A stretch of DNA of 64,000 bases from an uncultured bacterium (GCA_963814495.1 CAWFDJ010000027.1:32691-96690), one strand, 5' to 3'. Counted from the stretch's first letter, positions 3,021-58,670 are shown. Translations and numbers: made by a program. The notes: a model not told the origin generated them from the letters alone.

Positions 3021-4372
3021 CTACTTGCGGAGGTCGTCGGAGTAGAGCCGGGCGTGGCCGGGGCCGGCGGCCTGGGCGGCCTCCAGCGCCAGCACCGACC
3101 GCTGCAGCAGGGCGTTCTCGTTGTCCGCGTTGGCGGGGAAGGAGGAGACGCCGATGCACGCGGTGAGCTGCTCCACCTCCTTCTTGTCCTGGGAGGGGAA
3201 GGGGTACTCCGCGATGGTCTCGCAGAGCCGCTCCGCCAGGCGCATGGCCCCCAGGCGGCGCGTCTCCGGCAGCAGGACGGCGAAGCGGTTGTCCCCGTAG
3301 CGGGCGGGCACGTCCACCTCCCGCGTGCTCTTGATGATGATGTTCCCGATGTCGGAGAGGATGAAGTCGGCCATGATGCGGCCGTTGCGCCGGGCGTACT
3401 CCTCCAGGTCGTCCATCTCCAGGACCAGCAGGCAGACGTTGAGGCTGTAACGGCGGGCCCGGTTGACCTCGTCCACCAGGCGGGAGTGGAAGAAGTGCTG
3501 GTTGTAGAGGCCGCTGGCGCTGTCCCGCATGGTGTTGGTCTCCAGCTCGCTGTAGAGGTTGGATATCTGCAGGGCCAGCGAGGCGTGGGCGGCGGCCACC
3601 GTCAGCATCCCCAGGTGATAGGCCTGGAAATCCTCGTCCCGGCTTCGCCCCGCCAGCAGGACCCCGGCCGAACGCCCGCTCACCCGCAGGGGCACCGCCA
3701 TCAGGCAGACGGCCCCGGCCTCGCGCAGGAACTCGTCGGAGGCCAGGTCCTCGGGGGCCAGCCCCATCAGCAGGCTCCTGTCCATCTCCATCACCACTTC
3801 GATGACGGAGCCCTCGATGCGGATGGTCTTGTTCAGGAAGCGGGAGGCCTGGTCGCCCAGGGCCACCGCCAGGTCCAGTTCCCCCGCCAGCTCCCCGGGC
3901 AGCAGGACGAACCCGAGGTCGGCCTCGCAGAGGGTCATGGCATGCTCGAGTATCTCGTTCAGCTTGGGCAGGGGGTCGGTGTAGGCGTCGACCACCTGCA
4001 CGCTCTCGCAGAAGGTGCCGATGTCCTGAGCACCCCGGGCAGTTGCTCGACGCCGACTCCCCGCGCCGCGGCCAGGCAGGTGAAGAGATCGCCCTCCGGG
4101 CTGCCCTCGCCGATGTCGATGATCTTGCCGCGGTAGTCGGTGCCGGCGCGCGCGCCCACCCCGCGGGTGCTGAAGAGGATGTCCGGCTCCCGGTCCTTGA
4201 GCAGGGCGGCGACGTCCGGGAATACCATGGGGAACTCATAACCGTCGGGCCACTCCTCCGGCACCGGGCCTGTCCAGCCGATGACCTCGACGCCGTCCCC
4301 GATGTCCTTGAAGAAGCAGTAGACCTTCAATGCCGTGTCGTTGTTTCCGTCGATAGCGACGAGTACGGGCAA
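3021..4372 (-). CDS. GAF + degenerate GGDEF domain protein (frameshift ~3990-4030)
   Basis: RDSASGLYNQHFF, VNRARRY, LLVLEMDDL and REVDVPARYGDNRFAVLLPET. GAF-like MAVPLRVSGRSAGVL. N-terminal part is in ORF 3959..4372. Confidence 0.8.
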
Positions 4373-4532: not shown

Positions 4533-7409
4533 ATGAAGAGCAGGGTTTTTTCCATTGTCTCCGTTCTATTGGCTTGTCTGCTGCTGTGTTTTCCCTTGTG
4601 CTCCAACGTCCTGGCGTCCGGCACCGCGGGCGCGGCGGCGGTCAGCTCCGCGAAACTGCCCCAGGACATCTACACGGCCCGCACCTACGACGGGGTGGAC
4701 CTGAAGATGTGGCGGTTCCGCCCCACCACCGCGAGCGCCGTTGCGGGAGGGGGCCCAGCCCGTCATCCTCATGCCCGGGATGGCCTGCAACTTCGACTTC
4801 TTCGACACCCATACCCCGGACGGGGTGACCTACGACGAGCAGCTCCCGGCCGACCTGGCCGGCTGGGCCGAGGGGGACACCTACCTGTCGGACGCCGACC
4901 CCATGCGCTACTACAGCCTCGCCTACTACCTGTGGACATCCGGCTACGACGTGTGGATGGCCAACTACCGCGGCCAGGGCCGGGACGAGGTCCGCAGCGG
5001 CGGCGCGACCGGGTACGCCATCGACGAGCTGGGCATCTACGACATGCCGGCCATCATCAGCAAGGTGCGCGAGGTCACCGGGCAGAAGCCGGTGTGGATC
5101 GGGCACAGCATGGGCGGCGTCATGGCCAACATGTACCTGGAGGGCTGCCGGTTCGCGAACATGGACGACGCCGACTCGAGCGTCGTCTCCGACCCCGCGC
5201 TGGCGGCGGAGCGGAACGATGGTGATGGGCCGCAGGCCCTCAAGGCGTATATCCCGGTGGACGGTCCGTCCTATCCCTGCGGCGACATCCCCTGGCTCAT
5301 CGCGAAGTTGCTGTACGTGGCCCTGTACGTTCCCTGGAACCTGGACATCAGGCCCATCACCGCCAACCTGGGGGGGCTGGTCGCCTCGCCCGTCCTGGCC
5401 CTTGAAGAGATCTTCCGCCAGGTGTGGGCGGGCTTCGGCTACCCCGACCTGTTCCTGCCCCTCAACTTCCTGCCCTGTTTCGTCCCGGGCAACCTGGACG
5501 CCAACCTCGCGTCCTATTTCATCACCTACGGGGCGGACGGGTTCAGCTCGCGGGCGGTGGTCCAGTTCCTGGACGCGTGCGACAACGGAAAGATGCGGGA
5601 GGACTACCGCAACGGCACCTTCAACTGGTGGCGCCTGTTCCCGCCCGAGCCCGCCGCGGGCGACGGTTACTACTATTACTCGGACCACCTGGACGCGATC
5701 AGCCTGCCCACCTTCGTCCTCATCGACGCCACCCGGGACATCACCAACCCCGAGGACGTCAAGGCCGTCTACGACCTGAAGACCCGTAACGCGCACGACG
5801 ACTACTACGTCGTGCCCAACTCCGCCCACGCCGACATCGTCATGGGGTTCAGCGCGCCTTCCGACATGTTCCCCCGCATCGGCGCCTGGCTCAAGTCGCT
5901 GGAGGCCACCACCGTCACCCCCACCTCCGCGGCGCCCGGCGAGGTCGTGACCATCTCGGGTGCGAGCTTCGGGAGTTCCGGGTCGGTTGACTTCGGGGGG
6001 ACGCGGGCGGACGTGGCCTCCTGGAGCGATACCGAGATAACCGCGGTGGTACCCGCGGGCGCCTGCTACGGCAAGGTCAGCGTGACCAACCCCGGCGGCA
6101 CCGTCACCTCGGCCGAGGAGTTCATGCCGGCCGCCTCGGAGTTCTACTTCGCCGAGGGCTACACGGGTGAGGGCTCCTTCCAGGAGTACCTGTGCCTGGG
6201 CAACCTGGAGGCGCAGGGACGCCCACGCCCGGGTCACCTACATGCTCGGCTGACGGGTCCACCCTGGAGCAGGAGGTGACCGTGCCGGCCTCAGGGAGGG
6301 CCACCTTGGACGTCAACGCGGCGGTGGGACCGGACCGCGACGTCTCGGCCCTGGTCACCGCCGACCGCTCCATCGTGGCCGAGCGCCCCATGTACTTCGA
6401 CTACGGGGGGTGGACCGGCGGGTCCGACGTGGTGGGAGCCCCCGCCCCTGCAACGTCCTGGTACTTCGCCGAGGGCTACACGGGTGAGGGCTTCGACGAG
6501 TACGTCTGCGTCTTGAACCCGGGGGACACCCGGAGCGATCTCACCTTCCGCTTCCAGACCGAAGAAGCGGGAGAGGTGGTGCGCTCCGGTTACTCGGTGG
6601 GTGCGCACGCCCGCGCCACCTTCTTGGTCAACGACCTCTTAGGCCCCGGCTACCAGGCCTCGCTCGAGCTCACGGCGACCTCACCGGTGGTGGCCGAGCG
6701 CTCCATGTACTTTGACTACCAGGGCGCCTGGACCGGGGGGTCCTGCGTGATGGGGGCCACCTCGCTCGCGCAGGAATACTACTTCGCTGAAGGCACCACC
6801 CGGTCGGGCTTCCACGAGTGGCTGACCCTTGCCAACCCGGGAGCTTCCCCCATCACCGTGGCCGCCACCTACCAGCCGGGCTCGGGCCAGGGATCACCCG
6901 TCTACCGCACCTACACCGTCGGGGCGGGCAAGCGTTCCACCGTCTTTGTGGCCGACGAGGTGGGCACCGGCAGAGACGTCTCCGTCGAGCTCGCCGCCAA
7001 CGCGCCCTTCCTGGCCGAGCGCCCCATGTACTTCGACTACGGGGGCTTGACCGGCGGCCACTGCGTCATCGGGGCTTCCGCTCCGGCGGGCGAATGGTTC
7101 TTCGCAGAGGGCTGCACCGGGGCTGGCTTTTCCGAGTGGCTGTGCCTGCAGAACCCCGGGGCGGGCGACGCGATGGTGGAGCTGACCTACCTGACCCAGG
7201 AGGCCGGGGCCCTGCCGGCGCGCACGGTCACCGTCCCCGCCGGCTCCCGGGTGACCGTAAACGTGAACTCAGACGCCGGGGAGGGCTGGCAGCTGTCGGC
7301 CCGCCTTGAGGTGGTCTCGGGGCCCGCGGTGGTGGTGGAGCGCCCCATGGTCTTCAACTACGGCGGGGCCTGGAGCGGCGGCTCCTGCGTGGTGGGGTAC
7401 GCGCCTTGA
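4533..7409 (+). CDS. Secreted alpha/beta-hydrolase with an IPT/TIG domain and DUF5719-like repeat module (frameshifts ~4740 and ~6230)
   Basis: Signal peptide MKSRVFSIVSVLLACLLLC, nucleophile motif WIGHSMGG, VPNSAHAD, TIG-like PGEVVTISGASFG..SWSDTEI, then four FAEG/AERPMYF units. Confidence 0.8.
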
Positions 7410-7569
7410 AACATTCAAGGTTTGGGCCCGGGCGCCGAGGGAGGGGGAGCAGGAAGGCACGCGAGGCGATGGCAGGCGCCGAGGCGAAGCGCGCAGAGCG
7501 TGGCCCCAACCTTGAAGGGTACACACCCTGACCTGCGGTGCCTTCCAGGAGCCCAGGCTTGAATATAAA

Positions 7570-7637
7570 CGGGGAGAAAGGTGCGTCGTACAAACCTTCG
7601 ATTCCGATCGGGTTTGGTAGACGTACCTTTCTCCCCG
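7570..7637. terminator. Long inverted repeat between convergent genes; probable bidirectional terminator
   Basis: CGGGGAGAAAGGTGCGTC ... GACGTACCTTTCTCCCCG forms an 18-bp stem with one G-T pair, with further internal pairing. Confidence 0.6.
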
Positions 7638-7647
7638 AATTAAAGGA

Positions 7648-8949
7648 CTAGACCTTGGTCTCCTGGAAGGCTCCCGTCCAGATACCCATGGCCACGGCCA
7701 GCTCCTGGTGGTCCTGGGCGTACTGCTCCAGCGGGATGCCCTGCATGGTGGCGTCGATGGCCTGCCGGAAGCCCCTGGCGCCCGCCGCCGGCCCCATGGG
7801 GTGGGCGTGCACGCCGCCGCCCGAGCCGATCATGATGTCCGGCCCCAGGTCGGCCACGCACTGGGGCACCATCAGCGGGGTGATGCCGCCCGAGGGCATG
7901 GGCATGGTGGGCTTGAGGTCGTGCATGGGGTAGGTCATGGCGTCGGCGCACGGCAGGAAGCGGTCCTTGAGGAAGGGGGCCTTGCCGTAGGGGGCGGGGA
8001 AGACCACCACGTCCGCGCCGGCCAGGCGGGGCAGTTTGCCCAGCACCAGGTGGGAGGACATCCCCGAGTAGTGCGACTCGTAGAGGGCGCCGGCGCAGTC
8101 CATGTGGGCGAGGATGGGCACGTTGACCTGGTCGTCCTCGGCCAGCGCCTGCATGGCCGAAAGGCCCACCGCGATGTAGTTGACCATGATGGCGTTGGCC
8201 CCGGCGTCCACGGCGCGCCGGGCCGTCTCGAACATCTTGGGCAGGTTGTCGGAGACGTTCACCGTGTACAGGGTGCGCTCGCCCGTCTCCTCGTACACCC
8301 GCTTCTCCAGCGCCATGTACGCCTTGACCCGGTCCTCCACCCGGTTGAACTGCATGTCCGCGATGAGCTCGTCGTCCTTGACCACGTCGCACCCGCCGCG
8401 GGCCGCCTCGTAGAAGAGGTCGGCGCCGATCTGGCAGGGATAGCCGGTGCAGGGCTTGGTCATGTTGTTGAGCAGGGGGCGGCCCTCCACTCCCAGCGCC
8501 TTGTAGACGCCCTCGATGCCGAACTTCGGGCCGACGAAGCCGTCTGTGAAGACCTTGGGGAGGTAGATGTCCAGCAGCTTGATCTTCCCGCCCATGGAGA
8601 TGTTGCCCAGCACCGCGGTGAGCAGCATGGGTATCTGGTTCTCGATGTTGCGGAAGGGGAAGGCGATCTGGATGACGTAGCTGCGCTCGTCCACTTCCTT
8701 GGGCACCTCGAACTCGTACTGGGGCACCTCGTAGATGCCGATGACCTTGGCCACGTGCTTGGCCCGCACCTCGGGGGTCTCGCCCGGCACCGGGGTCCAG
8801 GTGCCGGTGGACTGCTCCACCGCCAGGAAGGGCCCGATGAAATAGGCCATCATGTCGCGGGGCATGGCCCCGTAGTAGGTGGCCACGATGTGGTCCCCGT
8901 AGTCGATGCCCTCGGGCAGGGCCCGCGGTTCCGCCGCGAAATTCTTCAT
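7648..8949 (-). CDS. RuBisCO-like protein (form IV RLP)
   Basis: EQSTGTW, NMTKPCTG, GCDVVKDDE, PSGG and GSGGGVHAHPMG motifs. AAGGAGG RBS precedes the ATG at 8949. Confidence 0.9.
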   Translation of the reverse strand: MKNFAAEPRALPEGIDYGDHIVATYYGAMPRDMMAYFIGPFLAVEQSTGTWTPVPGETPEVRAKHVAKVIGIYEVPQYEFEVPKEVDERSYVIQIAFPFRNIENQIPMLLTAVLGNISMGGKIKLLDIYLPKVFTDGFVGPKFGIEGVYKALGVEGRPLLNNMTKPCTGYPCQIGADLFYEAARGGCDVVKDDELIADMQFNRVEDRVKAYMALEKRVYEETGERTLYTVNVSDNLPKMFETARRAVDAGANAIMVNYIAVGLSAMQALAEDDQVNVPILAHMDCAGALYESHYSGMSSHLVLGKLPRLAGADVVVFPAPYGKAPFLKDRFLPCADAMTYPMHDLKPTMPMPSGGITPLMVPQCVADLGPDIMIGSGGGVHAHPMGPAAGARGFRQAIDATMQGIPLEQYAQDHQELAVAMGIWTGAFQETKV

Positions 8950-8978
8950 CTCACATACCTCCTTGGTCCTTCGGCCGT

Positions 8979-10514
8979 TCAAGCCGGCTCGTTCAACTTC
9001 CTATATACACCGGAGAGCTTCCGGTAGATCTTCTTGAAGGCGTCGAAGAGCTCGTCGTAGGTCTGCCGGTTGCCCCGGTCGGGCTCGTAGGTGCGGCGCA
9101 CCTTGACCACCTGCTTCAGCTCCTTGTAATCCTGGTAGATGTTGAGGGCCACCGCCACCGCCAGGGCGCAGCCCACCGCCCCGGCTTCCTGGGCGTCCTC
9201 CACCGCTTCGATGCGGTGGCCGGTGACGTCGGCGAAGATCTGCATCCAGATGTCCGAGCGCGCCCCGCCGCCGATGGTGCGCACCGTGGGACAGGGATAG
9301 CCCGCGCCGCCCACCGCCTCCAGCAGCCAGCGGCAGTTCATGGCCACCCCCTCGTAGACGGCGCGCAGCATGTCCTCGCGGGTGTGCTCCAGGCTGACGT
9401 TGAGGAAGGCGCCGCGCAGGGTGGTGTCGGTCACCGGCGAGCGCTCCCCGAACATCCACGGGGTGAAGATGAGCTTGCGCGACCCCGCCGGCACGTCCGC
9501 TATGGCCTTGTCGAGCACGGCGAAGATCTCCATGTCCTTGCCGGCCTGGTCCCATTCCTCCTTGCGGCCCAGTTGCTCGGCGAACCACTTGAGGCAGGCG
9601 CCGGCCGTCTCCGTCTCCCCGATCATCAGGAAGGAGTTGGGGTCGGCCGAGGCGATGGCGGCGATGCCGTACTTGCTCAAGCTCTTGGGCTTGGCCACGC
9701 TGATGCACAGCCATCCCGAGGTGCCGATGTAGATGTGGGCGTCCCCCTCGCCCAGGGCACCCGAGCCGGTGGCGGCGGCGGGCACGTCGCCCATGCCCCC
9801 GATGACCGGGAGCCCCGGGCGCAGGCCCATCCGCTTCGCCGCGTCGTCGTTGAGTACTCCCACCACTTCCACCGACTTCTTCACCGGCGGCAGCTTGTCC
9901 AGCGGGATGCGCAGCAGCTTCGAGAAGAGGGGCGACCAGTCGCGGGTCTTGTTGTCCAGCAGGCCGGTGGCGGCGGCGTTGCTCTGGTCGATGATGTAGT
10001 TGCCGGTGGAGCGGTAGACCAGGTAGCCGTTGACGTCCAGGATGACCTTGGCGCGCTGGTAGATCTGCGGCTCCTCCTCGCGCAGCCACATGTGCTTGCA
10101 GATGACGTCCTTGCCCGAGGGCACCGCCCCGGCCACCTTGGCCACGATGGTCTCCCCACCCATCCGCTTGACCAGGCGGCAGGCCTGCTCGTCGGCGCGC
10201 GAGTCGATCCAGATGATGGCCGGGCACAGGGGCAGGCCGGCGTCGTCCATGGGCAGCACCCCCAGCATCTGGGTGGCGTAGCCGATGCCCAGGACCTCGT
10301 CGGGGTCGGTGCCGGTCTCCTCCATGAGCTTGCGGGTGGACTCGGTCACCGCCTTCCACCAGTCCTCCGGGTCCTGCTCCGCCCAGGCCGGCCGGCAGTA
10401 GTCGGTACAGTAGGGCTCGAAGCGGTAGGAGATGATCTTCCCCTCCAGGTCGGTGAGGACGGCCTTGCTGCCCCCCGTCCCCACGTCGTGGCTGATGATG
10501 TACTTACCTCCCAT
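8979..10514 (-). CDS. FGGY-family carbohydrate kinase (xylulokinase-like)
   Basis: HDVGTGGSKA, EQDPEDWW, WIDSRA, GGMGD, IGTSGW, PWMFGERSP, RAVYEGVA and GGGARS motifs. Confidence 0.92.
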   Translation of the reverse strand: MGGKYIISHDVGTGGSKAVLTDLEGKIISYRFEPYCTDYCRPAWAEQDPEDWWKAVTESTRKLMEETGTDPDEVLGIGYATQMLGVLPMDDAGLPLCPAIIWIDSRADEQACRLVKRMGGETIVAKVAGAVPSGKDVICKHMWLREEEPQIYQRAKVILDVNGYLVYRSTGNYIIDQSNAAATGLLDNKTRDWSPLFSKLLRIPLDKLPPVKKSVEVVGVLNDDAAKRMGLRPGLPVIGGMGDVPAAATGSGALGEGDAHIYIGTSGWLCISVAKPKSLSKYGIAAIASADPNSFLMIGETETAGACLKWFAEQLGRKEEWDQAGKDMEIFAVLDKAIADVPAGSRKLIFTPWMFGERSPVTDTTLRGAFLNVSLEHTREDMLRAVYEGVAMNCRWLLEAVGGAGYPCPTVRTIGGGARSDIWMQIFADVTGHRIEAVEDAQEAGAVGCALAVAVALNIYQDYKELKQVVKVRRTYEPDRGNRQTYDELFDAFKKIYRKLSGVYRKLNEPA

Positions 10515-10517
10515 GCA

Positions 10518-11162
10518 TTACCCCCTCATCCCCTTGTTCGACGCCAGCAGGAATTTCAGGCTTATCTCCATGCCCCGGCCCAGGTCGAAGGAGTCGGGGT
10601 CCTCCAGCCACTGGATCTCCATGCCTTCCACCAGCCCCAGCAGGATGCAGGCCAGGTAGTAGGGGTCGACCGGCGGCAGCGCCTCCTCCTCGATGCCCTG
10701 GCGGGCGATCTTCTCCAGCTCGGCCTTGGTGCGCTCGACGTAGCCGTGCAGGGACTCCACGTTTTCGTCGGAAAAGGTCTCCTGTTCCTCGGCCCGCATC
10801 TTCCAGGACAGCTTGCAGTAGTCGCGGTCGCGGTAGTACAGCTCGACCATCTCGCCGCCCATCCACATGATCTTCTCCAGCGCCGTGCCCTCCCGGCGGG
10901 CGGCTTCCTCCACCAGGCGGAGTATCTCCTCGTGCATCTGCTGGATGAGGGAGAAGTACAGCTCTTCCTTGGATTTCCAGTACCAGTAGAGGGTGCCCTT
11001 GCCGTAGCCCGCCTCCATGGCTATCTCGGCCATGGTGGCCTTGTGGAAGCCCTTGGTCGAGAAGACCTTGAGCGCCGCCTGCTTGAACTCCCCTTCTCGC
11101 TGGTCCTTCACGGGGTTGTTCCTGATACCCAGGGACTTGGCCACTAGCTGCTCCTTCGGCAT
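10518..11162 (-). CDS. TetR/AcrR-family transcriptional regulator
   Basis: AALKVFSTKGFHKATMAEIAMEAGYGKGTLYWYWKSKEEL helix-turn-helix. Confidence 0.92.
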   Translation of the reverse strand: MPKEQLVAKSLGIRNNPVKDQREGEFKQAALKVFSTKGFHKATMAEIAMEAGYGKGTLYWYWKSKEELYFSLIQQMHEEILRLVEEAARREGTALEKIMWMGGEMVELYYRDRDYCKLSWKMRAEEQETFSDENVESLHGYVERTKAELEKIARQGIEEEALPPVDPYYLACILLGLVEGMEIQWLEDPDSFDLGRGMEISLKFLLASNKGMRG

Positions 11163-11183
11163 TAGACCAACCGGTCGGTCTAA
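11162..11183. promoter_or_regulatory. 22-bp palindrome; probable TetR operator
   Basis: TTAGACCAACCGGTCGGTCTAA (one mismatched pair) lies between the -10 box and the tetR ATG. Confidence 0.75.
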
Positions 11184-11211
11184 GCATATCGCAGCCCCCC
11201 TACCCTGTCAA
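11183..11211 (-). promoter_or_regulatory. Sigma70-type promoter of the tetR-FGGY-RLP operon
   Basis: Minus strand TTGACA (11211-11206), 17-bp spacer, TATGCT (11188-11183). Confidence 0.75.
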
Positions 11212-11217
11212 CAGCTC

Positions 11218-11282
11218 AATTTGGGGTCAGACCCCAAATTGTACTATCGACAGTATCAGAATTTGGGGTCTGACCCCAATTT
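11218..11282. repeat. Pair of inverted GGGGTCWGACCCC palindromes (REP/REPIN-like)
   Basis: AATTTGGGGTCAGACCCCAAATT (11218-11240) and AATTTGGGGTCTGACCCCAATTT (11260-11282). Confidence 0.7.
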
Positions 11283-11354
11283 CGGTGGGGTGCGTCATAA
11301 AGGTTTGACAGGTGTTTGGCCGAATAATTATCGTGGAGCGGAAAGGAGCGCCGC

Positions 11355-11759
11355 ATGGCGAAGTTCTTGAGCGATAAATGGCTGAAGGAGTGCAGGAAGA
11401 CCCTGCAGGACTCGGATGAGTTCAAGTCCGAGGCGAGGGACTTCTCCGGCGATTTCATCTTCTCCTTCGAGGCAGACGACGAACTCGCCAAGACCAAGCG
11501 CCTCTTCCTGTCCATCCACGGAGGCAACTGCGATGAGGCGGTCTTCCTCAACGGCGAGCCCTATCCCGACGCCGATTACCGCATCTCGGCCCCCTATTCC
11601 CTGTGGATGAGGATGATCAGGGGGGAGGAAGACGCTCTTGCGGCCTTCACCTCGCGCAAGGTCAAGATCAAGGGGAACATGCTCCGGCTGATGATGAACT
11701 CGGGCTCGGCCGTCGCCCTGGTCAAGGCCCTCGCCGGCGTCCCCATAGATTTCAACTGA
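11355..11759 (+). CDS. SCP2 sterol/lipid-binding domain protein
   Basis: FLSDKWL..., ADYRISAPYSLW..MIRGEEDALAAF...KVKIKGNMLRLM pattern; GGAG RBS. Confidence 0.8.
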   Translation: MAKFLSDKWLKECRKTLQDSDEFKSEARDFSGDFIFSFEADDELAKTKRLFLSIHGGNCDEAVFLNGEPYPDADYRISAPYSLWMRMIRGEEDALAAFTSRKVKIKGNMLRLMMNSGSAVALVKALAGVPIDFN

Positions 11760-57114: not shown

Positions 57115-58670
57115 AGGACCTGATAGTCGCCATCGATTCCGGGACCCAGAGCATCCGCGCGGTGCTCTTCGACAAGCACGGCACGCAGCTGGCCATCGAG
57201 CAGGCCGACTACGAGCCCTACTTCTCCCTGGAGCCCGGCTGGACCGAACAGCATACCGAGGACTACTGGGAGAAGCTCTGCCGGGTGTGCCGGGGCCTCA
57301 TGGACCAGATAGACATCGACCCCTCCCGCATCGCCGGCATCGGCATGACCAGCCAGCGCAACACGGTCATCCCCGTGGACCGGGAGGGCAACGCCCTGCG
57401 CCCGGCCATCGTCTGGCTGGACCAGCGCACCGTCGACGAAGTGCCGCCCCTGGCCGCGCCCCTGCAGCTCGTGGTCAAGCTGATCGGCCAGGAAGAACAG
57501 CTGCGCTACGCCCGCAAGCACTCCAAGTACCTGTGGATCAGGGAGCACGAGCCCGAGGTCTACAGCCGGACCCACAAGTTCGTGCAGGCCACGAGCTTCT
57601 TCGTCCACAAGCTCACCGGGGAGTTCCGCGACTCCTGCGCCATGATCTCCGGCATCTACCCCTTCGACTACAAGGCGCTGCGCTACTACGGCGCGCCCCT
57701 GGGCTTCATCTACGGCGCCCTGGGCGTCGAGAAGGGCCACTGCGTCGAGCTCTTCCCCCCGGATAAGCCCCTGGGCCGCATCACCGCGCAGGCGGCGCGG
57801 GAGACCGGCCTGCCGGAAGGCCTGCCGCTGGTGGTGGGGGGCGGCGACAAGCAGTGCGAGCTGCTCGGGGCCGGCGCCATCGACCCGTCCATCGCCGAGA
57901 TAAGCTTCGGGACGGGGACGGCCATGGAGGTCATCTCCTACAAGTACCTGAAGGACGCGAAGATGCGCTACTTCACCTGGCCGGCCGCGGTGCCGCGGGC
58001 CTGGGTGCTGGAGTCGTTCATCATGCGCGGCTTCTGGATGGTGACCTGGTTCAAGCAGGAGTTCGGCCACCGCGAGGCCATGGAAGCGGAGCGGCGCGGG
58101 GTGGCGCCGGAGGTGGTGCTGGACGAGGTCATCCGGGACATCCCCCCGGGCTGCCAGGGGCTGATGCTGCAGCCGTTCTGGACTCCCGCCGTGAGCAACA
58201 AGTACGGCAGGGGCGCCATCCTCGGCTTCGGCGACCACCACACCCGCGCCCACATCTACCGCGCCATCTTCGAGGGCATCTGCTTCGAGCTGCGCCGCCT
58301 GCAGGAGATCGTGCAGCGCAAGAACGGCGTCCCTTTGAAGAGTATCCGCGTGGGGGGCGGCGGCTCGCGCTCGGACGTGGTGGTGCAGATAGCCGCCGAC
58401 ATGTTCGACCTGCCCGTCTCGCGCATGGCCACCTCCGAGATCGCCGCCCTGGGCGCGGCCATCGACGCTGCCGTCGGCACCGGCATGTACGCAAGCTTTG
58501 ATGAGGCGGTGTCGGCCATGAGCCACGTGGGCCAGACCTTCCGGCCCGATCCAAGCAACCACCGCGTCTACACCCGGCTCTTCAACGAGGTGTACGTGGA
58601 GTCGTTCCGCGCCCTGGACCCGCTGTACAGGCGCATCGCCGAGATCACCGGGTACCCGGCGGAGGACTGA
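57111..58670 (+). CDS. FGGY-family carbohydrate kinase
   Basis: IDSGTQSIRA, WLDQR, GGGDKQ, SFGTG, RAIFEG, GGGSRS; ATGA overlap with the upstream gene. Confidence 0.9.
   Translation: MKDLIVAIDSGTQSIRAVLFDKHGTQLAIEQADYEPYFSLEPGWTEQHTEDYWEKLCRVCRGLMDQIDIDPSRIAGIGMTSQRNTVIPVDREGNALRPAIVWLDQRTVDEVPPLAAPLQLVVKLIGQEEQLRYARKHSKYLWIREHEPEVYSRTHKFVQATSFFVHKLTGEFRDSCAMISGIYPFDYKALRYYGAPLGFIYGALGVEKGHCVELFPPDKPLGRITAQAARETGLPEGLPLVVGGGDKQCELLGAGAIDPSIAEISFGTGTAMEVISYKYLKDAKMRYFTWPAAVPRAWVLESFIMRGFWMVTWFKQEFGHREAMEAERRGVAPEVVLDEVIRDIPPGCQGLMLQPFWTPAVSNKYGRGAILGFGDHHTRAHIYRAIFEGICFELRRLQEIVQRKNGVPLKSIRVGGGGSRSDVVVQIAADMFDLPVSRMATSEIAALGAAIDAAVGTGMYASFDEAVSAMSHVGQTFRPDPSNHRVYTRLFNEVYVESFRALDPLYRRIAEITGYPAED

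Follow-up and report, generated by a model that had tools for sequence, protein, structure and literature searches.

An FGGY kinase-RuBisCO-like protein operon as probable part of an undescribed three-enzyme pathway

Pairs of genes encoding an FGGY-family carbohydrate kinase and a RuBisCO-like protein (RLP), together with an amine-handling enzyme, recur in hundreds of uncultured anaerobes, and databases label the RLP a methionine-salvage enzyme. One such pair, preceded by a tetR gene, lies in a 64,000-nucleotide stretch of DNA from an uncultured bacterium (CAWFDJ010000027.1:32691-96690; hereafter, the window), raising the question of which reaction this RLP catalyzes and with which partners. 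The initial annotation proposed that the kinase makes a ketose phosphate on which the RLP acts via an enediolate, a reading that is partly supported here: the conserved kinase linkage and the phylogenetic position of the RLP speak for it, whereas an SCP2 gene thought to belong to the unit does not, and a third component was missed.

Organization and regulation of the operon

Four open reading frames were confirmed in position and family by Pfam: RLP, FGGY kinase, TetR (TetR_N), and SCP2 (PF02036). The first three are co-oriented on the minus strand in the order tetR, kinase, RLP (Table 1), with 3 nt between the end of tetR and the start of the kinase gene. The RLP was initially given a TTG start at 8982; however, an AGGAGG motif lies 8 nt 5′ of the ATG at 8949 and homologs of 432-436 aa share this start point, so that ATG 8949 is most likely the true start, and the RLP would then begin 29 nt past the kinase stop. 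Gene order and operon signals show the operon to be real, as first described, although its terminator-like hairpin was recognized by eye: a 12-bp stem (GGGGAGAAAGGT / ACCTTTCTCCCC) enclosing a long loop with an inner stem is followed by GTTTATATT, and a simple terminator scan 3′ of the RLP picked up nothing. No mtn gene, transporter, or dehydrogenase adjoins the operon within the window by ORF and Pfam checks, in agreement with the initial annotation.

Table 1. Coordinates of operon features within the window.
Feature	Coordinates	Strand	Basis
Terminator-like hairpin, directly 3′ of the RLP stop	7561..7636	-	Read by eye
RuBisCO-like protein (form IV RLP), 433 aa, uncharacterized kinase-linked family	7648..8949	-	PF00016, PF02788
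FGGY-family carbohydrate kinase (FGGY1), 511 aa	8979..10514	-	FGGY_N + FGGY_C
TetR-family repressor, 214 aa, first gene of the operon	10518..11162	-	PF00440
Palindromic operator candidate, TTAGACCAACC/GGTCGGTCTAA, abutting the tetR start	11162..11183		Inverted repeat I4
Sigma-70-type promoter for tetR-FGGY-RLP, TTGACA-17-TATGCT	11183..11211	-	Promoter scan

The promoter is one of two promoter-like sites found in the region, against 0.8 expected, and its -35 hexamer is invariant across four related loci. The core of the neighboring palindrome, AGACCGACCGGTTGGTCT, is likewise kept in the window and in L005, L006, and L007, between flanks that have diverged. A TetR_N HTH domain together with a palindrome over the start of tetR itself is the arrangement of a predicted autoregulated operator; in 18 related Actinomycetota loci, a TetR ortholog (58-84% identical) is found upstream of the module. 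TetR would repress the operon through this conserved palindrome, presumably until a pathway intermediate binds.

Relationships and active site of the RLP

By sequence, the RLP has the fold of the RuBisCO large-subunit superfamily (PF00016, 166 bits against a cut-off of 30, E 1.5e-48; PF02788, 36.8 bits against 20.7). The label carried by many of its homologs in JGI annotation, MtnW, also describes its best NCBIfam match (NF007095, 361 bits) and its best solved relative (2oek, E 3.8e-81, with ∼40% identity as read off the alignment rather than computed by a tool). However, the RLP scores below both curated MtnW cut-offs (NF007095, 360.9 vs. 409; TIGR03332, 312.6 vs. 513.6) and branches outside the MtnW clade (15 rows, SH-aLRT 98), which includes the verified representative P0148 (652 and 641 bits). 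It belongs to a separate clade of six rows (SH-aLRT 98) nested in one of ten (SH-aLRT 95). At RuBisCO position N123, the position of Lys98 in Geobacillus kaustophilus MtnW, a residue reportedly assigned a catalytic role by Imker and colleagues in 2007, the RLP family has an invariant Asn116, whereas all 15 MtnW-type representatives have Lys. More broadly, positions E60/N123/K334 are Gly/Lys/Ser in MtnW-type proteins and Glu/Asn/Lys in the RLP family, and this latter pattern, combined with a small residue at K177, is absent from the verified MtnW representative. These comparisons exclude the RLP from the MtnW clade, and the initial claim of novelty survives this placement.

The genomic setting adds to this picture. 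The lack of mtn genes noted initially holds for the surroundings of the operon; elsewhere, the genome encodes a bona fide MtnA and an MTAP-like protein, but no MtnK, no MtnB above cut-off (its class II aldolases reach 97.5 against 137), and no MtnD/ARD, absences that are no proof in a genome only 77% complete. The O2 requirement of the classical methionine-salvage pathway was also counted against an MtnW function, the RLP-carrying lineages being known to be anaerobic.

The active-site residues named in the initial annotation were all found, namely K165-P-C167 (K175, and K177 replaced by Cys), K191-D-D-E, H282-M283 (H294, and R295 replaced by Met), G322-K323 (the loop 6 Lys), and S353-G-G, and none of them varies among 14 members of the family that share 62-79% identity with the protein encoded in the window. 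Among them, K191, D193, and E194 correspond to the carbamylated Lys and metal ligands (K201, D203, E204). Family-invariant positions equal to RuBisCO comprise E60, T65, W66, N123, K175, K201, D203, E204, H294, K334, S379, G380, G381, G403, and G404; the Mg/carbamate site and the entire first-phosphate (P1) site are kept. The second-phosphate (P2) site is lost (R295 to M283, H298 to A286, H327 to V316), as is K177 (C167). The complete RuBP site that marks bona fide RuBisCO (forms I-III) is thus missing from the RLP, which reaches 253 bits with the rubisco_III model, short of its cut-off of 497, and should be unable to bind ribulose-1,5-bisphosphate in the normal mode. Because the R295 position is M, P, T, or A among sister clades with the same partners, the lost P2 site implies that there is no second phosphate but is silent on the nature of the tail. 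The earlier conclusion that the RLP is not a carboxylase is nevertheless insecure, since E60, N123, K175, and K334 together make up the combination seen in true RuBisCO and in the closest OiaX relatives, and not in MtnW. The AlphaFold model (pLDDT 63.9) was too poor for pocket inspection.

Conserved partners of the RLP

The kinase is full length (FGGY_N positions 1-245 of 245 and FGGY_C positions 3-197 of 198). Its best NCBIfam model is XylB (TIGR01312, 343 bits vs. a cut-off of 380; NF011601, 220 vs. 912) and its best PDB match is Escherichia coli xylulokinase (2itm), so that it resembles xylulokinase but scores below the equivalog thresholds. We know of no FGGY kinase that phosphorylates amino acids, a point that was counted against the three-enzyme pathway considered below. 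From 354 hits, 80 species genomes were kept, yielding 77 informative loci from Actinomycetota, Chloroflexota, and Caldisericota; in 75 of these, an FGGY gene lies directly upstream of the RLP in the same orientation. The FGGY and RLP trees are broadly congruent. Among four archaeal sister loci examined, gene order differs and FGGY is present in three, adjoining the RLP in the Thermoprotei-related and Hadarchaeales loci and lying ∼1.3 kb away in Thorarchaeota, with one gene between; the Jordarchaeales locus has none. The linkage is therefore very strongly conserved in other genomes. The SCP2 gene, by contrast, adjoins tetR in only one of the 80 related loci (L006), and is incidental rather than part of the unit.

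The three-gene unit first described is incomplete, however, because a third conserved partner, a saccharopine-dehydrogenase-like enzyme or a class III aminotransferase, lies on another contig in this genome. At the locus itself, the former is found in 37 cases, the latter in 17, and both in none, and at least six swaps between them are needed on the RLP tree; the two enzymes are interchangeable. Nine of 13 genomes without an amine enzyme at the locus, examined for the kind tested, encode one elsewhere. In the genome under study, the dehydrogenase-like ortholog (C21:19484-20713, 58% identical) sits beside a paralogous kinase, FGGY2, which looks frameshifted. The same gene occurs elsewhere in G002-G005, with FGGY2 alongside in G002, G004, and G005, and the aminotransferase (78-83% identical) occurs elsewhere in G006 and G263-265. 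This genome thus carries the module, an FGGY gene adjoining the RLP plus an amine enzyme, split over contigs; the split and the apparent frameshift both weigh against the pathway proposed below. The module neighborhoods contain no conserved transporter or additional enzyme, which suggests that the pathway ends in a central metabolite or hands its product to an enzyme whose gene lies elsewhere.

Proposed pathway, alternatives, and related systems

The window probably encodes two of the three working parts, and the regulator, of a widespread and undescribed pathway in which an amine is converted to a keto group, a phosphate is added, and an enediolate is formed. A literature search found no published description of the FGGY-RLP-amine-enzyme module, and no described RLP pathway fits it, in keeping with the original view that the reaction matches no known RLP. 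In the step order suggested by chemistry, the amine-handling enzyme (here the dehydrogenase-like protein on C21, elsewhere the aminotransferase) would interconvert amine and carbonyl, and the kinase would phosphorylate a terminal hydroxyl. The RLP, assuming binding like that of RuBP, would then hold the single phosphate in its P1 site, and its carbamylated Lys191-Mg2+ center would, as the first chemical step, enolize the adjacent alpha-hydroxy-carbonyl to an enediolate. From here, a phosphate of the beta-keto-acid type may lose CO2, in the manner of the OiaX decarboxylase, or be cleaved at a C-C bond; for example, a phosphorylated 2-oxo/3-oxo hydroxy-acid derived from deamination of a hydroxy-amino acid would give DHAP. 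Almost as likely, a proton is returned instead, giving the 3-epimer or keto-isomer of a tetrulose or pentulose 1-phosphate for subsequent aldolase cleavage. True carboxylation is quite unlikely, and other reactions make up the remainder.

An alternative in which the RLP acts on 5-methylthioribulose-1-phosphate or 5-deoxyribulose-1-phosphate, the products of MtnA, in a manner similar to the Rhodospirillum rubrum RLP, is improbable. SAM by-products would be salvaged in this way, with the FGGY kinase re-phosphorylating the free ketose and the amine enzymes serving a later step such as keto-acid amination. The genome does encode the MtnP and MtnA functions needed to make MTRu-1-P: MtnA lies beside SAH hydrolase (TIGR00512, 393 bits vs. 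a cut-off of 279), and the MTAP-like match is divided between two reading frames (117 + 156 bits). The hydrophobic Met and Val in the former P2 site would also fit, and a class II aldolase lies inside one archaeal version of the cluster. MtnA was also found in nine of 10 module-bearing genomes from five phyla and, within a sample of 251 Actinomycetota, in 25/25 RLP-positive but 113/226 RLP-negative genomes; however, 55% of the whole sample has MtnA, RLP-negative members of the same families included, so that the association is partly phylogenetic. On one complete Chloroflexota chromosome that carries the module, no MtnA reaches the cut-off, the conserved module never contains an mtn gene, the R. 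rubrum RLP is distant (3qfw, 111.7 bits, E 3.9e-31), and a kinase would be redundant where MtnA already supplies the 1-phosphate.

It is very doubtful that the module degrades a lipid-type amino-alcohol similar to a sphingoid base, with the 2-amino group removed, C1 phosphorylated, SCP2 as carrier, and the RLP working on a 1-phospho-2-keto-3-hydroxy lipid whose tail occupies the hydrophobic former P2 site. The Met, Ala, and Val at that site, the SCP2 gene next to tetR in the window and L006, a weak resemblance of the TetR to FadR-type regulators, and recurrent lipid-metabolism neighbors (acyl-CoA dehydrogenase in five loci; thiolase/MaoC/PlsY upstream in ∼11 Dehalococcoidia loci) would fit, but the lipid genes reflect lineage-specific synteny, SCP2 is all but restricted to the window, the R295 position is variable, the module core has no lyase or acyl-handling enzyme, and there is no evidence of sphingolipids in the RLP-carrying lineages. 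That the RLP is simply the 2,3-diketo-5-methylthiopentyl-1-phosphate enolase MtnW is hardly credible in light of its clade, scores, and residues.

The closest solved and curated relatives by sequence are nonetheless MtnW/YkrW of G. kaustophilus and Bacillus subtilis (2OEK, 2ZVI), which share with the RLP the fold, the Mg2+/carbamate triad K-D-E, K175, H294, the loss of the second-phosphate site, and one side of the superfamily tree (46-row group, SH-aLRT 97). They differ in forming a separate clade, in lacking E60 and K334, in having Lys98 in place of Asn, and in their partners, which are mtnK/A/B/X/D rather than an FGGY kinase and an amine enzyme in hosts of lineages known as anaerobes. Form III RuBisCO (e.g., Thermococcus kodakarensis 1GEH) is identical to the RLP at 15 of 19 reliably mapped classical active-site positions, including E60, N123, K175, K201, D203, E204, H294, K334, and the P1 site, but differs at the four replaced residues (Cys, Met, Ala, and Val in the RLP).

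OiaX/OiaC, reportedly described in D-apiose catabolism by Carter and colleagues in 2018, resemble the proposed pathway in that a kinase supplies a monophosphorylated keto substrate for CO2 chemistry on an enediolate. The closest proteins of OiaX type, which themselves fall short of the OiaX cut-off (524 and 373 bits vs. 700), share E60, N123, K175, and K334 with the RLP family and have a similarly small residue at K177 (Ser, against Cys in the RLP), but keep R295 and H327, both lost in the RLP family. The RLP scores only 190 bits against the cut-off of 700, lies on the other side of the tree, and is paired with an FGGY kinase and an amine enzyme instead of a DUF1537 kinase and a dehydrogenase; it was thus rejected as an OiaX 3-oxo-isoapionate-4-phosphate decarboxylase. 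OiaX/OiaC are the RLP decarboxylase and transcarboxylase of that pathway (NCBIfam NF042437; PMC6302742). The R. rubrum RLP, the 5-methylthioribulose-1-phosphate 1,3-isomerase of the MTA-isoprenoid shunt (3QFW; PMC4958253), takes as substrate a ketose 1-phosphate whose tail carries no charge, and the genome studied here has the MtnA and MTAP genes needed for making such a compound, but the shunt has neither a kinase nor an amine enzyme. A close sequence relationship to this isomerase was not found, the score of 3qfw (left out of the superfamily tree) being much lower than those of the MtnW, Photo, and form III matches.

Among FGGY kinases, finally, EryA-EryC (erythritol) and LyxK-SgbH (L-ascorbate/L-lyxose) have a second enzyme outside the RuBisCO superfamily and no amine step. 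Their logic is nevertheless that proposed for the FGGY-RLP pair: once the kinase has placed a phosphate on a terminal hydroxyl, the second enzyme epimerizes or decarboxylates beside a carbonyl.

Operon and control region in the window

The four ORFs were recovered at the coordinates reported in the initial annotation, and Pfam agreed with it on every family. The RLP more likely starts at ATG 8949 than at 8982, because AGGAGG lies 8 nt upstream of this codon and the homologues (432-436 aa) begin there. The kinase is xylulokinase-like but scores below the XylB cut-off. As for the terminator that had been claimed, a suitable hairpin does follow the RLP stop, but a simple terminator scan flagged none.

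Coordinates of the operon, its control elements and other features (window positions unless a contig or locus is named)
Feature	Position	Strand	Remark
RLP gene	7648-8982 as first called; likelier start ATG 8949	minus	433 aa from ATG 8949; Pfam
FGGY kinase gene	8979-10514	minus	Pfam
TetR regulator gene	10518-11162	minus	Pfam
SCP2-domain gene	11355-11759	plus	divergent; Pfam
Promoter TTGACA-17-TATGCT	11211..11183		upstream of tetR
Near-perfect palindrome			TTAGACCAACC/GGTCGGTCTAA; adjoins tetR start
Candidate TetR operator DNA			TTAGACCGACCGGTTGGTCTAA
Hairpin			after RLP stop; 12-bp stem, then T-rich run
23-nt palindromes, two copies	11218-11240; 11260-11282		AATTTGGGGTC(A/T)GACCCCAAATT; 42 nt apart
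SCP2 promoter TTGACA-18-TATCGT	11305-11334
GAF/GGDEF-type gene	3021-4001	minus
Alpha/beta-hydrolase and TIG-domain ORF	4741-6279	plus
DUF5719 ORF	6192-7409	plus
Further FGGY-family kinase gene	57123-58643	plus
Saccharopine-dehydrogenase-like gene, then FGGY2	C21:17923-20713		own genome, outside window
MTA phosphorylase-like gene	C11:151543-152263		own genome, outside window
Class II aldolase-family gene	L090:8940-9695		Thermoprotei-related locus
FMN-reductase-like gene	L001:7642-8289; L091:3340-4011		related loci

An alignment with the three closest related loci revealed that the core of the palindrome adjoining tetR and the -35 box are kept amid diverged DNA, which supports autoregulation of the operon by TetR through this putative operator; across related loci, the regulator varies between TetR and MarR. 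The two 23-nt palindromes, which differ from the TetR operator and are partly conserved in one Geothermincola-like locus only (L005), sit between the tetR and SCP2 promoters and probably serve to bind a different regulator that controls the SCP2 gene.

Conserved partners of the RLP across genomes

Scanning of one genome per species yielded 354 stretches encoding an RLP relative, and 80 loci were kept. The nearest relatives are from an Actinomycetota MAG (96% identity) and Candidatus Geothermincola (89% and 83%), and the family is present in 17 of the 18 sampled genomes of the window's actinobacterial class. An FGGY orthologue lies directly upstream of the RLP on the same strand in 75 of the 80 loci; because less than 900 nt upstream is present at three of the other five, the linkage is counted as 75/77 informative loci. 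The kinase-RLP pairing is thus conserved in other genomes, drawn from Actinomycetota, Dehalococcoidia, Anaerolineae, and Caldisericota.

The initial annotation had missed a third enzyme. Clustering of all flanking ORFs of the related loci to find conserved neighbours yielded only one more conserved element, in two alternative forms: a saccharopine-dehydrogenase-like protein (SDH; about 406 aa; PF03435/PF16653) at 37 loci, with saccharopine and carboxyspermidine dehydrogenases as its nearest solved relatives, and a class III aminotransferase (about 481 aa; PF00202) at 17 loci, with archaeal alpha-amino-acid racemases and transaminases as its nearest; none of the 80 loci has both. Each form is placed variously upstream, downstream, or divergently (loci that hold all three genes include TetR-SDH-FGGY-RLP at L008, FGGY-RLP-SDH at L027, and FGGY-RLP-aminotransferase at L029), and at least six switches between them are needed on the RLP tree, some of which separate RLPs only about 0.03 changes per site apart. 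This repeated interchange of two unrelated amine-handling enzymes argues that one pathway step converts an amine to a carbonyl, or the reverse.

Neither form is present at 13 of the 80 loci or at the window's own locus; among the genomes examined, the gene then usually lies elsewhere. The window's genome encodes an SDH orthologue on another contig, C21 (58% identical to the protein of related locus L008); next to come is FGGY2, a paralogue that shares 56% identity with the kinase of the window. The SDH gene is also away from the RLP locus in genomes G002 to G005, with FGGY2 beside it in G002, G004, and G005 and the G003 locus too short to show. Four Chloroflexota genomes carry aminotransferase orthologues (78-83% identical) elsewhere. 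The closest relative, an incomplete MAG (G001), has a weak SDH-like match only and no aminotransferase, and in three genomes searched for the aminotransferase only, G266 and G268 gave matches of just 43-45% and G267 none. FGGY2 nests within the RLP-linked clade on the kinase tree; the split layout therefore arose when an ancestral TetR-SDH-FGGY-RLP operon was duplicated and rearranged. Near C21:18395, the FGGY2 reading frame is broken in two, which reflects a pseudogene or else an indel in the assembly; three related genomes (L094-L096) have an unbroken SDH-FGGY2 pair. A further FGGY-family kinase in the window is 29% identical to the operon kinase and has no RLP nearby, and a fourth homologue lies on contig C11.

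A second homologue search, with the sister-clade RLP representative P0123 as query, recovered archaeal sister clades (48-57% identical to P0123). Gene order is RLP-FGGY-(class II aldolase)-aminotransferase in a Thermoprotei-related locus (L090) and SDH-RLP-FGGY in a Hadarchaeales locus; FGGY and SDH are close to the RLP in a Thorarchaeota locus, and a Jordarchaeales RLP has no kinase nearby. In L090, the class II aldolase-family gene lies inside the module, between kinase and aminotransferase, a hint that the pathway can include an aldolase, decarboxylase, or epimerase reaction on a ketose 1-phosphate.

Other neighbours appear incidental. The SCP2 gene, previously noted with the operon, is not part of the unit: it stands beside tetR in just one of the 80 related loci (L006) and was rejected as a pathway member. 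GGDEF, HNH, ADC-like, thiolase/MaoC/PlsY, radical SAM, acyl-CoA dehydrogenase, STAS, and CoA-transferase neighbours were likewise rejected as lineage-specific synteny; in the Geothermincola-like loci L005-L007, the RLP has a GAF/GGDEF-type protein downstream, and the window has a similar gene near the operon, but this is synteny at genus level only. No transporter is conserved with the module across the flanking ORFs of the related loci. An FMN-reductase/iron-sulfur-flavoprotein-like gene (PF03358, CxxCxxC motif; about 12 of loci L008-L022, as well as L001 and L091) is repeatedly found just upstream of the module in Actinomycetota, and also near the RLP in the Jordarchaeales locus; its product may act in redox chemistry as an optional fourth partner. 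This gene is not adjacent to the operon in the window.

Family of the RLP and relation to methionine salvage

The best curated matches of the RLP are MtnW models, both below cut-off (361 versus 409 and 313 versus 514), and it scores far under the cut-offs of the form III and OiaX models; its best solved relative is MtnW of G. kaustophilus (2oek, E 3.8e-81). An AlphaFold2 model from a 14-sequence alignment (pLDDT 63.9, pTM 0.63) was too low in confidence for pocket analysis. A search of 1.8 billion cluster representatives supplied 87 sequences for a tree, with clades labelled by signature residues and spot checks of single members, the first of which found no OiaX-type protein. MtnW-type proteins group together in one clade (15 rows, SH-aLRT 98), in which P0148 was verified as a bona fide MtnW (652 and 641 bits), and the window's RLP family forms a separate clade (6 rows, 98) nested in one of 10 rows (95). 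Both are part of a wider radiation in which most lineages have Cys or a small residue at K177, and no characterised member of these lineages was found. Literature searches for an RLP with FGGY or xylulokinase, and for RuBisCO in Geothermincolia, returned no description of the module; this clade is not covered by recent papers on RLPs, and the RLP in a paper on a Hakuba actinobacterium is in another context. The window pair is a kinase-coupled RLP of undescribed function and not MtnW, as originally proposed; the initial annotation erred on the SCP2 gene and lacked the third enzyme.

A link of the module to salvage of SAM by-products is possible. MtnA occurs in nine of 10 genomes that carry the module, which belong to five phyla, and, among 251 Actinomycetota sampled, in all 25 RLP-positive versus 113 of 226 RLP-negative genomes; however, it is common in the same families with or without the RLP, it is missing from one complete chromosome that carries the module, and a kinase is unnecessary given MtnA. 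The possibility of mtn genes elsewhere in the genome, raised in the initial annotation, holds in part: the assembly (2.84 Mb, 35 contigs, 77% complete) encodes a bona fide MtnA adjoining SAH hydrolase and an MTAP-like gene broken across two frames, but neither MtnK nor ARD/MtnD was found in it. Two generic class II aldolases both fall under the MtnB cut-off. These genes are in keeping with anaerobic salvage of the DHAP-shunt type, not with the MtnW route.

The MTA phosphorylase-like gene is matched by its model in adjacent frames (positions 2-92 and 89-238). In the window, the alpha/beta-hydrolase and TIG-domain ORF overlaps the DUF5719 ORF by 88 nt in another frame and ends in a repeat motif, YFAEGYTGEG, that fills the latter; the stretch 4741-7409 looks like a single long secreted protein interrupted by a frameshift. 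Because these ORFs, the MTA phosphorylase-like gene, and FGGY2 are all frame-split, such frameshifts in this genome may be assembly errors.

Active site and candidate reactions

The active-site residues first listed for the RLP are all present, and invariant in 14 family members (62-79% identical to the window protein). The family has Glu, Asn, and Lys at E60, N123, and K334, and also keeps T65, W66, K175, K201, D203, E204, H294, S379, G380, G381, G403, and G404, all identical in a verified form III RuBisCO with a full RuBP site (P0253). Compared with RuBisCO, K177 is replaced by Cys and the second-phosphate site is altered (R295 to Met, H298 to Ala, H327 to Val). MtnW-type proteins instead have Gly, Lys, and Ser at E60, N123, and K334; the Lys, which we take to be the catalytic base of the enolase, a role reportedly described by Imker and co-workers in 2007, is Asn in the window's family. 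Judged from the residues kept and the second-phosphate residues lost, the RLP should bind a single phosphate in the first-phosphate site (P1), beside a metal-bound carbonyl, and be capable of enolising its substrate; it presumably cannot bind RuBP in the normal way. The combination of E60, N123, and K334 with a small residue at K177 is shared with the OiaX-like protein P0211 (Ser at K177; closest to the OiaX decarboxylase model, with 524 bits against a cut-off of 700), whereas MtnW- and Photo-type RLPs lack it.

In the proposed pathway, an amino-hydroxy compound would be converted to a keto compound, the terminal hydroxyl of which would be phosphorylated; the carbamate-Mg2+ centre of the RLP would then enolise the phosphorylated compound, with the phosphate in P1. 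Conservation of no more than three genes suggests that the pathway ends in a central metabolite. This expectation and the shared OiaX-like pattern make decarboxylation or C-C cleavage of the enediolate, for example of a phosphorylated oxo-hydroxy-acid to DHAP, a serious possibility, if somewhat short of probable. Nearly as likely, the RLP would epimerise or isomerise a tetrulose or pentulose 1-phosphate, which an aldolase encoded elsewhere would then cleave. Genuine carboxylation by the RLP is improbable, even though the family appears to keep the complete apparatus for CO2 addition (E60, N123, K175, carbamyl-K201/Mg2+, H294, and K334); we likewise doubt that it acts as a "monophosphate RuBisCO", in which the enediolate of an FGGY-supplied ketose 1-phosphate would be carboxylated and cleaved to 3-phosphoglycerate and a non-phosphorylated acid. 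If true, RuBisCO-type CO2 fixation would have a second natural substrate, used by anaerobic bacteria as well as by Asgard, Hadarchaeal, and Thermoprotei archaea.

To our knowledge, only a handful of RLP functions are known (MtnW enolase, the R. rubrum isomerase, and apiose decarboxylase/transcarboxylase). Each altered ideas on the evolution of RuBisCO chemistry. The present family is large, with 354 hits among species-representative genomes plus archaeal sister clades that include Asgard lineages, and its methionine-salvage label is a routine mis-annotation. The conserved three-gene set makes its function directly testable with recombinant enzymes; the reaction, once solved, would add an RLP function and a three-enzyme, amine-dependent route, both new, and could inform which activity came before CO2 fixation. 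Among the non-carboxylase groups compared here, this family has the active site closest to that of true RuBisCO, from which it differs mainly in the loss of the second phosphate site.
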